Assembly (NCBI GenBank): GCA_965218795.1
Contig: OZ244653.1
Coordinates: 416,001 to 480,000, forward strand
Direction: 5' to 3'
DNA length: 64,000 nt
Origin: a bacterium
GTDB lineage: Bacteria; UBA8248; JACPRG01; G963555815
Made by a program: the position numbers and the translations under genes. The notes under the pieces were generated by a model that was given only the letters and a program-made list of their open reading frames with translations, made no database searches and was not told the origin of the DNA. This document shows positions 15,816 through 61,671 of this stretch, piece by piece. Within the stretch, counting starts at the first letter, position 1, and each line of letters starts with the position of its first letter.

Positions 15816-15955
15816 GAATCATTAGTATGGAGACTGGGAAAAACGGAAAGCAAGGTTATAATCGTTCCTCGGGGGCATTTTATTTCGTCGAAGACCCTAT
15901 ACTGCCTATACTAAAGGAAGCCGTCGATGAACCAATCCTGAAGATGGAGTTTGTC

Positions 15956-16513
15956 ATGTCCCTGAACATTTCTCGGAAAAAAATCATATTCGGGGGGATC
16001 CTCGCGGGCCTGATTCTGGCGGCGTGGTTCAGCCTGCCGCCGGCCCAGGGCCAGAACCTGCCCGGGACTGAGAACGCTCCTAAAGTGGGCGGCAAGGCCC
16101 CGATGTTCGATTTGGAAGGATTTGACTTAAAGAAACAATTGGAACGAGGGCCCGTCGTCCTCGTATTTTATCGAGGATTCTTTTGAGGAATCTGCCGCCA
16201 GCAGCTCGTGCAGCTGCAAGCCGATCTCAAGAAAATCAAAGAACTGAAAGGCGGGCTCGCCGCGATCAGTTCGGATCGTTTAGAAACAGCCATCCAGACC
16301 AAGACCGCCCTGAAGCTCTCCTACAACATCCTGCCCGACACCAAACGGCAGGTCATTCAGCTTTACGGCATCCTGCATCCTGACGAAGGGATCGCGCGTC
16401 CGGGCATTTTTGTTATCGACCAGAAGGGTTTTGTCCGCTTCCGCCACATCGGGAAGAACGCAGGCGACCGGCCAACCAATGCCCGGATAATCAATGCTCT
16501 CAAATGGCTCTAA
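15956..16513 (+). CDS. Selenocysteine-containing AhpC/TSA (peroxiredoxin-like) protein, UxxC, with signal peptide
   Basis: Tracked ORFs 15827-16186 and 16208-16513 are in the same frame. Joined sequence VVLVFYRGFF-[TGA 16184-16186]-GICRQQL matches FYRGxxCxxC. ARPGIFVIDQKG downstream; GGAG before ATG 15956. Confidence 0.88.
16201..16217 (+). promoter_or_regulatory. Putative SECIS element
   Basis: GCAGCT-CGTGC-AGCTGC perfect 6-bp stem; loop GU at +22/+23 after the UGA. Confidence 0.7.
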
Positions 16514-53297: not shown

Positions 53298-54161
53298 TTG
53301 AAACCTGAAAATATCATCGACATTCACACTCATATGGCATGGATGGAGAACAGCCAACCCGGATTCGTGGCGTTCATGGAGGCGACGATTGGCGAAAAAT
53401 ATCAACAGTTCATGGAGAGTCATCGGGAGCCGGAGACGTTTCTGCGGGTCATGGATGAAAACGGCATCGTCCGCGCCGTGGTCCTCGCAGAGTATTCCCC
53501 CGCAACCACAGGAATAGCCAGCCATGAGCAGTTGCTGGATTACTGTGCGGCTTCCAGCAGGCTCATCCCGTTCGCCAACGTCAACCCTTTCCTGTTTCAT
53601 CGTCCCGAGCGGGAGTTCGAGCGTCTTTTGAAGCTCGGAGTGAGGGGCTTGAAGCTCTGCCCAACCTATCAGTTTTTCTGTCCGAACGATCAGCTGTTGG
53701 CTCCGCTCTACCATGTGGCGCAAGAAGCCGGTGTGCCTGTCCTCGTGCACACGGGTACTTCGATGTTTCCCGGCTCCAGACTCAAGTATGGGGATCCATT
53801 GTTTTTGGATGATGTCGCCGTAGATTTCCCGGAATTGCGTTTAGGTATGTGCCATGGGGGAAGGGGATTCTGGTACGCGGAGGCGTTCGCGCTGTTGCGG
53901 TTTCACAAGAACCTGTTCATCGATATCGCCGGCCTTCCTCCGCAAAAACTGTTGGATTATTTCCCCGAGCTCGAAAGGTGCCCGGACCAATTCCTCTTCG
54001 GGTCCGATTGGCCGGGGCTCCCGAGGACGGTTGCCGAGAACGCGGAGGCGGTGGCCCGTCTGAAAATCTCCAGCGAGACAAAAGAGAAGATTCTTCGAGG
54101 CAACGCGCATCGATTTCTGGGCGGCGATTGCACTCAGTTTGGAACTGGATCAGGTGGCTGA
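53298..54161 (+). CDS. Amidohydrolase_2 family protein
   Basis: IDIHTH, GLKL, VHTG, CHGG, FGSDWP. Confidence 0.9.
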   Translation: MKPENIIDIHTHMAWMENSQPGFVAFMEATIGEKYQQFMESHREPETFLRVMDENGIVRAVVLAEYSPATTGIASHEQLLDYCAASSRLIPFANVNPFLFHRPEREFERLLKLGVRGLKLCPTYQFFCPNDQLLAPLYHVAQEAGVPVLVHTGTSMFPGSRLKYGDPLFLDDVAVDFPELRLGMCHGGRGFWYAEAFALLRFHKNLFIDIAGLPPQKLLDYFPELERCPDQFLFGSDWPGLPRTVAENAEAVARLKISSETKEKILRGNAHRFLGGDCTQFGTGSGG

Positions 54162-54749
54162 CCGGGCGGTCGTGTCGCCAATCCCTTCCAGCCGCAGCAT
54201 TCGATCTTTTGTAAGGATGCCGCCGGGTGCCGAAAACCCTCTAAGGTCCCCACGGGACCCAATGACCCGGTGTCACGGTACGACAAGAGGCACCGGATTA
54301 CCCGCCATGACCGCCCCGACCGCGCGCGACGCCTTGGGAGAGCCTGCGAGAGCTGCCACTTGGCCGTACGTCCGGATTTGTCCATAGCCGATATTTCTGG
54401 TAGCCGTCATCACCTTTTGGGAGAATTCCGAAAAGTCCGAGAGGTCGAGAGGGTAATCCATCTCCGCCGTCCCACCCTCAAAGTACATTTTCACTGAAGA
54501 ACCGATTTTCTTCAGCAGCGGCGTTGGTTCGCGCAGGAGAACCGCTCCAGCTTCCTCCAGCTTTGATTCGACCCGTTGCTGGCTGGATTCATGAAGAAAC
54601 AAGTACCTGAGGCCCTTGTCCGTCACGGCAGCACCGGCCCACCCAAAAGAGGTCTGGAAGGTGCCCCCATTCAACGAAGAGTGCAGGATTTTTGGACGGT
54701 CCGCTCTGGACGTGCCCTTCCGGTGAGCAACTCTTTTCGTATTTTGCAT
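54150..54749 (-). CDS. ogt: Selenocysteine-containing methylated-DNA--protein methyltransferase (PUHRV)
   Basis: IGYGQIRTYG, ASRAVG..MAGNPVPLVVP-[TGA 54275-54273]-HRVIGSRGDLRGFSAPGGILTKDRMLRLEG; the TGA replaces the Cys of PCHRV; true stop at 54152-54150. Confidence 0.9.
54244..54260 (-). promoter_or_regulatory. Putative SECIS element
   Basis: mRNA GGGUCCC-GUG-GGGACCU; loop GU at +20/+21 after the UGA, as in E. coli fdhF. Confidence 0.75.
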
Positions 54750-54868
54750 CGAAAACCCCCTCCTGGACCATAGGCATTGTGCTCAAATAAGCAATAGTGT
54801 ACAGTATTTTGTGGTCGGAAGGAAGTCGCAGAAACCATCGTAAATCATGCGAGGGTGACCGCAGCCGG

Positions 54869-55330
54869 ATGGGAAAAGGTCGAATTGCCATAGGGTCGGA
54901 TCACGCCGGATTCGAGTTAAAGGAAAAGATCAAAGAGTTCCTGGAGAGGCGCGGGGAGGTCGTTGTCGACTTCGGAGCGAATTCTCGCGAATCGGTTGAT
55001 TATCCTGATTACGGGCGGAAGGTTGCAAAGGCTGTCGCGAACGGCGAGGATGAGCTAGGGATTCTGATCTGCGGCACGGGTATCGGGATGAGCATTGTCG
55101 CGAATAAGGTGCCGGGCATCCGTGCCGCGTTGGTTCAGGATATTTTCACTGCGAAAATGGCGCGTGAGCACACCAATGCGAACCTTCTCGTTCTTGGGGC
55201 CCGTGTGGTGGACCCTGAGATCGCACCACAACTCGTGGGGACATGGCTCGATTCCCAGTTCCAGGGAGAGCGTCACAAGCGGCGGATCGACAAGATTGCC
55301 GAACTAGAAAAGGAGAATGGGACCCCGTGA
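54869..55330 (+). CDS. rpiB: Ribose-5-phosphate isomerase B
   Basis: [32 protein letters not shown]. Confidence 0.96.
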
Positions 55331-57139: not shown

Positions 57140-57357
57140 GCCTCTACCGCATATCGCCCATCACTGTGTTTCTCATACCAGGCAGGCATTGAACTCCCCA
57201 AGGATGTCCTGCTTTTCTCCCGGCATCCGGATTTTTGCAATGATCAGACATCTTTATGACAAAATGCTCCCGGTTCGTGTCTACATTGATGACAGGAGAA
57301 GTATCGGAGACGTGAATTGAAAGAACAGGTTCTTCCGCGCCACCGGGGGCTTTGGAT

Positions 57358-57912
57358 ATGAACAGAAAACATTCAACTCGTTACTGGGTATTGGGAAGTA
57401 TCGGGTTGGCGCTTGCGCTGTTTGTGTTTTTTCCGATTCAGGCGAGAATCTCCGCCAATTCTTTGATTGGAAGTCCTGCACCCGCTATCAAGAGCACGGC
57501 ATGGATCAATTCGCCCGGCATCGATTGGCCATCGCTCCGCGGCAAGGTGGTCCTCATCGACATGTGGACCTTCGGGTGATTCAACTGCCGCAATGACGTG
57601 CCGCAGTTGGCGGCTTGGCATCGAAAATACGGGAAGCAGGGTTTGGTCATCATCGGAAATCACGCTCCCGAGTTCCGTTATGAGAAGAAGCTCGAAAACG
57701 TGCAGAAGGCAACCAGGGAGCTTGGGATTCAGTACGCCGTTTGCCTGGATAACGATTTCAAGAACTGGAAGGCATACCGCAACCGGTACTGGCCCACGAA
57801 ATATCTAGTCGATAAGAAGGGGATCCTGCGGTACTTCACGATTGGAGAAGGGAATTACTCATCGACTGAAATCATGATTGAGCGGCTCTTGGCGGAGACT
57901 CCGCAAAGCTGA
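57358..57912 (+). CDS. Selenocysteine-containing exported thioredoxin-like (DipZ/TlpA-type) protein, UxxC
   Basis: WINS...LRGKVVLIDMWTFG-[TGA 57577-57579]-FNC, then in-frame HAPEFRYEK, NRYWPTKYLVDKKG, GEGNY; N-terminal signal/TM. Confidence 0.9.
57600..57614 (+). promoter_or_regulatory. Putative SECIS element
   Basis: GCCGC-AGTTG-GCGGC apical stem with loop GU at +27/+28; lower stem TGCC/GGCA; an alternative CAACTGC/GCAGTTG fold also exists. Confidence 0.55.
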
Positions 57913-60262: not shown

Positions 60263-60486
60263 GAAAATATTATAGAAAGTCCATTCTTCTGCCAATGAAG
60301 CGCCTGAATGCGTTCTAGTACTATAACTATTTATTTTTATTCACTTATTTCAGTTCTTCTCCTGTTTCCAGCCCCTTGCATTCCCGCCATGTTTGTGCTC
60401 AAGTACGCACCGAGTTGATGCCGGTCATATTCGTTTTGATTACGGACTTGCACACCGATTGCCATCGTATAAAGGCAAGGAGGACC

Positions 60487-61671
60487 ATGCCCAGAAGAAG
60501 CGAACTCAGGATCACCAAACGCACCGTGGATGCGCTCACCGTCGAAGCCGAGGATGCCGTCTTCTGGGATCGGGACCTGGCCGGCTTCGGGGTGCGGGTC
60601 CATGCCACCGGCCGCAAGGTCTACGTGGTGCAGTCCCGGGGGCCGACCGGGCCGAAGCGTGTGACCCTCGGGCGTCATGGGGACCTGTCGACCGATGAGG
60701 CGAGGAAGCGGGCGGCCGTTGTCATCGACCGCATCAAGCGGGGGGAGGACCCCGTGCCCGCGCCGCCCGAACCGGAGCTCACAGTGTCCGAACTGTCCGA
60801 ACACTTCATGCGCGTCCATGTCAAGGTGCATTGCAAGCCGAGCACGGCCGCCAAGTATCGATTGGTACTCGACAAACACATCTTGCCGGTGCTGGGCGGG
60901 ATGTCAATCAGCGAGGTCGGACGAGGGGAGATTGCGGCGCTGCATCACCGGCTCCACGACACACCTGCAATGGCCAACGGGACGGTCAATATCCTGTCGA
61001 AAATGTTCTCGCTGGCCGAGGCGTGGGACCGGATACCGCCCGGCCGGAACCCGTGCCGGTCGGTGCGCCGTTACAAAATGCGGTCGCGCGAGCGGTTTCT
61101 GACGCCGGAGGAGTTCCGGCGCCTGGGCCGTGTATTGAGGGATGCGGAAACGGACGGCTCGGTGTGGCCGCCGGCGATTGCGGCGCTTCGCCTGCTGATG
61201 TTGACCGGATGCCGGAAGAGCGAGATCCTGACGTTGCGTTGGGACGATGTGGACCGCACGGCGGGCGAACTGAGGCTCAGGGAGGCCAAGTCGGGCCCGC
61301 GCATGGTTCCCCTGACCATGCCTGTGCTAGCGGTGCTCGACGGCATTCCCCGTATCGACGGCAATCCCTGGGTGATTGTGGGCCGGAAGCCGGATTCCCA
61401 CCTGCCTGACCTCCAACGCTACTGGATGCGGATTTGCGAACGCGCCGTACTTGATGACGTTCGGATCCACGACATCCGGCACTCCTATGCCTCGAGGGCC
61501 CTGGCGCTTGGCGAGGGCCTACCCACGATCGGCAAGCTGCTCGGTCACAGGAAGGTGTCGACCACGGCGCGGTACGCACACCTGATGCGGGATGCGGAGA
61601 AGGTCGCGGCCACCCGGGTGGGCGACAGCATCGGGGCCCACATCGGGCCGCGGAGCACCGAGGCAGCATGA
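60487..61671 (+). CDS. Tyrosine recombinase/integrase with arm-binding (DUF4102) domain
   Basis: WD..L.GFGVRV, catalytic R (GCRKSE), K, HDIRH, LGH, RY; AAGGAGG before ATG 60487. Confidence 0.93.
   Translation: MPRRSELRITKRTVDALTVEAEDAVFWDRDLAGFGVRVHATGRKVYVVQSRGPTGPKRVTLGRHGDLSTDEARKRAAVVIDRIKRGEDPVPAPPEPELTVSELSEHFMRVHVKVHCKPSTAAKYRLVLDKHILPVLGGMSISEVGRGEIAALHHRLHDTPAMANGTVNILSKMFSLAEAWDRIPPGRNPCRSVRRYKMRSRERFLTPEEFRRLGRVLRDAETDGSVWPPAIAALRLLMLTGCRKSEILTLRWDDVDRTAGELRLREAKSGPRMVPLTMPVLAVLDGIPRIDGNPWVIVGRKPDSHLPDLQRYWMRICERAVLDDVRIHDIRHSYASRALALGEGLPTIGKLLGHRKVSTTARYAHLMRDAEKVAATRVGDSIGAHIGPRSTEAA

Follow-up and report, generated by a model that had tools for sequence, protein, structure and literature searches.

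Gene Organization and Protein Features

The window, that is, the whole stretch of 64,000 nucleotides that was analysed, carries on its reverse strand an ogt/MGMT gene interrupted by an in-frame TGA codon. The features of the locus are as follows:

54150..54749, (-): coding sequence of ogt/MGMT, a two-domain alkyltransferase of 199 aa plus TGA stop
54759..54764, (-): Shine-Dalgarno-like AGGAGG, 9 nt ahead of the ATG at 54749, identified by eye
54273..54275, (-): in-frame TGA, predicted Sec159, aligned to Cys145 of hAGT
54244..54260, (-): SECIS-like 7-bp hairpin of the centroid fold, nt 16-32 from the U of UGA, with loop G23-U24-G25
54234..54236, (-): Phe172, at the position of Tyr158 in the active-site loop according to the alignment to hAGT

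Codon 159 was TGA, in the context NPVPLVVP-U-HRVIGSRGDLRGF, confirming the claim of a preliminary description that this codon replaces the acceptor Cys codon of the PCHRV motif (VVP-U-HRV). It was followed by exactly 40 codons and a TGA stop at 54152-54150. These codons complete the fold, as had also been proposed: the read-through product matched PF01035 over positions 1-81 of 81 (97.5 bits for a cut-off of 27, E 4e-28); the product stopped at the TGA matched only positions 1-51 (57 bits). The read-through product also exceeded the cut-off of TIGR00589 (85.1 and 46.4, respectively) and was under the cut-off of each of the narrower equivalogs PRK10286, PRK15435, and PRK03887. The AlphaFold model showed a pLDDT of 85.6, and its top Foldseek matches were all AGTs (E 1.5e-13) with the same two-domain fold, the first ten having TM values of 0.62-0.68 by query length.

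In the alignment, Y128, R142, N151, U159, and H160 corresponded to Y114, R128, N137, C145, and H146 of hAGT, and F172, K181, and E188 to Y158, K165, and E172. The acceptor motif of AGTs was thus found as P-U-H-R-V, accompanied by the equivalents of Tyr114, Arg128, Asn137, and Glu172. On sequence grounds, the gene is a real ogt/MGMT with a predicted Sec in place of the alkyl-accepting Cys, and it is the sole PF01035 gene of the genome. The Zn-binding domain of Ada (PF02805) had no match in the genome; given this absence and a score of 56.8 for PRK15435 (cut-off 345), the bifunctional regulator/alkyltransferase Ada was ruled out.

The TGA was intact in contigs of runs X7 and X10, which belong to different studies, although X7 possibly derives from the same source DNA. 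Sequencing error was rejected as the origin of the codon, which is intact in both runs and in relatives. Within ogt, the contig of X10 showed few differences, three in total and all amino-acid changing (A174S, G83S, and T43A; window positions 54230, 54503, and 54623); A174S was present in X7 too. Short contigs of the RNA runs X18 and X19 lay on genes beside ogt and none on ogt itself. Short contigs of two sponge metatranscriptome runs, 99% or more identical, matched window positions 53994-54144 (amidohydrolase) and 54952-55208 (rpiB), a hint at the habitat.

Selenocysteine Machinery and Other Selenoprotein Genes

A full set of genes for selenocysteine was present in the genome: SelA (1.9e-140), the adjoining SelB (1.8e-115), SelD, and a tRNA-Sec with UCA anticodon (72 bits), the sole UCA tRNA among the 56 detected with ARAGORN. 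The gene of SelD (L041, G000:C1:5147448-5148413) has its own in-frame TGA, as a Sec form of this protein would. A lack of Sec machinery, which the preliminary description had named as an objection, is thereby removed.

A different decoding of the codon was considered, in which UGA is read as Cys by a Cys-inserting variant of tRNA-Sec, or as Trp or Gly by genome-wide reassignment, and the enzyme is an ordinary one. The codon does sit at a Cys position, and some bacteria have systems that insert Cys at UGA. Against this, TGA ends ordinary genes in the window, ogt among them, the only UCA tRNA scores as tRNA-Sec, and SelA and SelD are intact, so that this explanation is very improbable.

Two further genes of the window contain an in-frame TGA. 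The first, at 57352-57912 (+) with TGA at 57577, encodes an AhpC/TSA-family protein with the motif W-T-F-G-U-F-N-C (U-x-x-C), has a hairpin directly after the TGA, and is broken into two pieces when genes are called in the standard way; it is a probable selenoprotein. The second, at 15818-16510 (+) with TGA at 16184, encodes another protein of this family, with the motif Y-R-G-F-F-U-G-I-C, and is probably a Prx-like selenoprotein. A tyrosine-integrase-like ORF was recognized by eye at 60376-61671 (+), with a close paralogue near selA (C1:4773433-4774353) among IS remnants. In the available text of BSepDB (PMC13326102), the record of L078 is placed under UBA8248 with 54 selenoproteins, and by that record UBA8248 is a selenoprotein-rich group.

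Conservation and Distribution of the Sec Form

An alkyltransferase match with one TGA was found in 43 of the 51 genomes of the class, the source genome included (codon position verified in 27 of the 43; the other 16 come from the search table only). Uniqueness of the TGA to this assembly, an objection that the preliminary description had named, is thus excluded. By groups, the TGA form was present in 7/7 genomes of the family, 35/42 of a large sister family, and 1/1 and 0/1 of two others; the ten outgroup genomes had none. Among the top 30 loci, 27 had the TGA at the acceptor codon. SelA was detected in 42 of the 43 genomes with the TGA form, the exception being 79% complete. It was also detected in seven of the eight class genomes lacking this form, and Sec at Ogt is therefore optional. 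Together, the conservation of the TGA and the full Sec machinery support the earlier proposal that UGA specifies Sec at the acceptor position.

Each of the seven family genomes had a single PF01035 gene; most genomes of the sister family carry a second, Cys-type copy. In the family, ogt adjoins glyA in 6/6 relatives, within a housekeeping context (rpiB-glyA). Over the 30 codons past the TGA, pN was 0.08-0.20 vs a pS of 0.50-0.65 in all five family comparisons; purifying selection acts on these codons. Two broken Sec-Ogt genes were observed: L017, from a family member (G005), with a frameshift in a G run nine codons past the TGA, and L101, a GTDB match with an in-frame stop upstream. Their breaks are due to either assembly error or decay.

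These data bear on an alternative in which the TGA serves as a genuine stop or as a regulatory break, and the gene is either a pseudogene or the source of a truncated or ATL-like (damage-binding) product. Public collections hold the product of the gene only as a protein of 158 aa, and a few relatives are broken (L017 and L101). The 158-aa entry, however, reflects gene calling; the codons past the TGA are under purifying selection, none of the seven family genomes has another PF01035 gene, and SelA and hairpins accompany the TGA. We consider a true stop highly unlikely.

A TGA-specific pattern scan of the GTDB genomes returned at least 119 stretches. Among the 119 matches listed, 116 were Ogt at E < 0.001, one was a broken Ogt, and two were chance matches. 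According to the record titles, the listed matches belong to Desulfobacterales and other deltaproteobacteria, Bacillota, Dehalococcoidia, Nitrospirota, Nitrospinota/Tectomicrobia-labelled genomes, Planctomycetota, Sumerlaeota, Fusobacteriaceae, and Acidimicrobiia. SelA was found in 9/10 of the GTDB-match genomes checked, with no match in G067. Sec-Ogt is thus common and no one-off, and databases store a truncated product.

In the Ogt tree, the proteins of the class-mates grouped with Nitrospinota/Tectomicrobia-titled records, a set of titles to which L078 belongs; going by this tree, the class of the source genome is probably UBA8248. Twenty-two deltaproteobacterial Sec-Ogts (L050, L062, L064, L084, and related loci) formed a well-supported clade with the motif NP[YF]xxEVP-U-HRV; several of them have about 55-60 open codons before the TGA, are ATL-sized, and are devoid of the N-terminal domain. 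Four Cys-Phe genes (L032, L039, L340, and L356) were nested among Sec-Phe genes. One of these, L340, retains a strong hairpin (z -1.68) and looks like a recent Sec-to-Cys change.

SECIS-Like Hairpin

The centroid structure contained a stem GGGUCCC/GGGACCU closed by a GUG loop, whose G23 and U24 are at the same offsets from UGA as the loop G and U of the fetched E. coli fdhF gene. The 7-bp hairpin described previously at the fdhF SECIS position is therefore present and its G and U match, but its stability is not significant when the gene is taken alone: z was -0.15 with respect to dinucleotide shuffles, no better than chance, and -1.29 with respect to synonymous shuffles (p 0.09). Loop G23 was conserved in 6/6 family sequences and U24 in 2/6. 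Six of the seven stem pairs hold one standard pair type across the six sequences, and no compensatory change was detected among them; the SECIS covariation that had been proposed as a check among orthologs was not observed in this set.

As a set, the Sec genes had clearly stronger SECIS-like hairpins than the Cys controls. The mean z vs synonymous shuffles was -1.56 for 126 distinct TGA genes and -0.36 for 116 Cys genes, kin among them being non-independent. A hairpin with a loop G, the loop starting at nt 20-27 (a criterion set after the data were seen), was found in 121/126 TGA genes vs 40/116 Cys genes. Lineage-matched values were -2.13 (20 TGA genes) and -0.24 (10 Cys genes) in one Nitrospirota class, and -1.15 (6 TGA genes) and +0.15 (22 Cys genes) in a Tissierell-type family. 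The stem register varies from clade to clade.

Pairing of Sec with Phe at the Tyr158 Position

When Sec and Cys forms were compared column by column, the position of hAGT Tyr158 differed most, with Phe in 120/122 Sec and 25/111 Cys forms. In the pooled set, after removal of 19 duplicates, 13 short rows, and four broken or chance loci, this position was 147 F/2 Y in Sec forms (n = 149) and 43 F/128 Y in Cys forms (n = 171). The search patterns required Asn at the Asn137 position, with His also allowed in the lineage-matched and pooled sets. Within lineages, the counts were as follows: Tissierell-type family, Sec 6 F and Cys 9 F/13 Y (loci L284 and L290, outside the motif, were left out); Clostridiaceae-type family, Sec 1 F and Cys 1 F/28 Y; Nitrospirota class, Sec 20 F and Cys 8 F/2 Y; and Desulfobacterales-type order, Sec 4 F and Cys 1 F. 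Of the two Sec genes with Tyr, one comes from a genome in which SelA had no match, and it may be no true Sec gene.

On a poorly resolved tree built without both trait columns, 37 changes between Sec and Cys were counted; on an earlier core tree, only two were forced on well-supported branches. Pagel's test, which is liberal and was applied here to a sample enriched for Sec, indicated dependent evolution of Sec and Phe (LR 77.5, 4 df). The strict independent-pairs test gave eight pairs on well-supported branches, about four as expected and none opposite, and was not significant (median p about 0.125). Earlier sets of such pairs comprised two, three, and three, none of them significant and none opposite.

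The Phe codon could also be constrained by the RNA, but its middle base had a mean pairing probability of 0.45, 65 of 123 sequences had no partner above 0.3, and switching this base to A altered the upper stem by a median of +0.03 pairs. An RNA-level cause is thus unsupported, and since the codon is no consistent part of the hairpin, a cause at the protein level is the likelier one. In some clades the Cys enzymes often have Phe, which could therefore be a precondition for Sec rather than its consequence.

According to the available text of a review, this Tyr holds the base in place within the pocket, and a bacterial OGT in which it is changed to Phe has a lower affinity for DNA with alkyl lesions (PMC5751216). 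The openly accessible literature yielded no report of a Tyr158 change in Sec-Ogts and none of Y158F. We lean somewhat towards the view that natural Sec-AGTs arose or spread many times, each with Phe, that the Sec-Tyr combination is selected against, and that these proteins have a distinct, convergently retuned active site, in this family within its sole alkyltransferase. If so, the Sec-Phe active site would have different kinetics or lesion preference, and mutation avoidance in this family, with its sole alkyltransferase, would hang on selenium supply. The pairing is a lead not found in print, which bears on the selenium cost of a suicide protein and on the role of Tyr158 in ordinary AGTs.

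Proposed Mechanism

The gene is predicted, with a probability of about 0.88, to encode a full-length O6-alkylguanine-DNA alkyltransferase in which UGA is recoded by SelB as Sec159, the selenolate acting as single-turnover acceptor. SelB and Sec-tRNA would recode the UGA, with the downstream hairpin (nt 16-32) as their guide, as suggested by the machinery, the conservation, and the SECIS signal of the gene set. The helix-turn-helix, Arg142, and Tyr128 would then flip out the O6-alkylguanine, a step to which the conserved residues and the fold point. The selenolate of Sec159 would take the alkyl group in one irreversible step, by analogy with the mechanism of the family and with engineered hAGT-U145, and the protein would be spent, at a cost of one Se per lesion. 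A selenolate acceptor may depend less on assistance by the active site than a cysteine does, and the near-universal change from Tyr158 to Phe could be part of a retuning for the selenolate, which is the simplest reading of this change.

The preliminary description had also contemplated that Sec makes the enzyme recyclable; in that case the Se-methyl group would be removed and the protein would turn over. The only argument in favour is one of cost: many lineages spend Se on a suicide protein, and this calls for an explanation. No neighbour gene was common to the Sec clades (two isolated cross-clade similarities in the 1.5-kb flanks of 58 loci), the gene context in the family is housekeeping, and the usual AGT residues are all kept. 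Moreover, selenoethers are stable, and their oxidation leads to elimination, not to regeneration. A recyclable enzyme thus finds no support and has very little probability.

Under the predicted single-turnover mechanism, natural Sec-Ogt would be one of the rare selenoproteins without a redox role, and a single-use one. An acceptor of higher reactivity could, speculatively, be of interest to SNAP-tag engineering.

Comparison with Known Systems

Sec-Ogt is a known predicted family since 2005, to which the gene of the window adds one more member. As the preliminary description had suspected, such genes were predicted in surveys: Wu et al. (2005) described CHY0809 of Carboxydothermus hydrogenoformans as a Sec suicidal alkyltransferase, which was thought unique and recent (PMC1287953). 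The novelty attributed to the gene was accordingly overrated, and part of the MNNG rescue proposed for it has already been performed, in that engineered hAGT U145 rescues an ada ogt mutant of E. coli from MNNG (Haruna et al. 2014, PMC4150793). In the same work, N137A inactivates the Cys form of hAGT and spares the Sec form (PMC4150793). In the available text of reviews, Sec-MGMT appears as predicted only (PMC9312934; PMC13188914), and a study of a natural Sec-Ogt was not found in the openly accessible literature. BSepDB may well list these genes already.

CHY0809 (ABB14497.1), likened here by its description, shares with the Ogt of the window the PF01035 domain, Sec at the acceptor Cys, a stem-loop after the UGA, and the Sec machinery; whereas it was thought unique, Sec-Ogt of the type found in the window is the main form in the class (43/51 genomes) and occurs in several phyla. 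The predicted Sec-MGMT of the Olavius symbiont metagenome (PMC1976440) and the MDP of algae, a predicted Sec-MGMT (PMC7539508), belong, from the text available, to the same predicted selenoprotein family in other lineages. Engineered hAGT C145U also has Sec as alkyl acceptor, but it is artificial and amber-encoded, was followed as survival in vivo, and keeps Tyr158, where natural Sec forms have Phe. With the Cys-type Ogt/MGMT proteins (E. coli Ogt, Ada-C, hAGT, and archaeal OGT), the Ogt of the window has in common the fold and the equivalents of Y114, R128, N137, H146, K165, and E172. It differs from them in the predicted Sec for Cys145, in Phe for Tyr158 (Tyr in 128/171 Cys forms), and in a two-residue insert after the loop.
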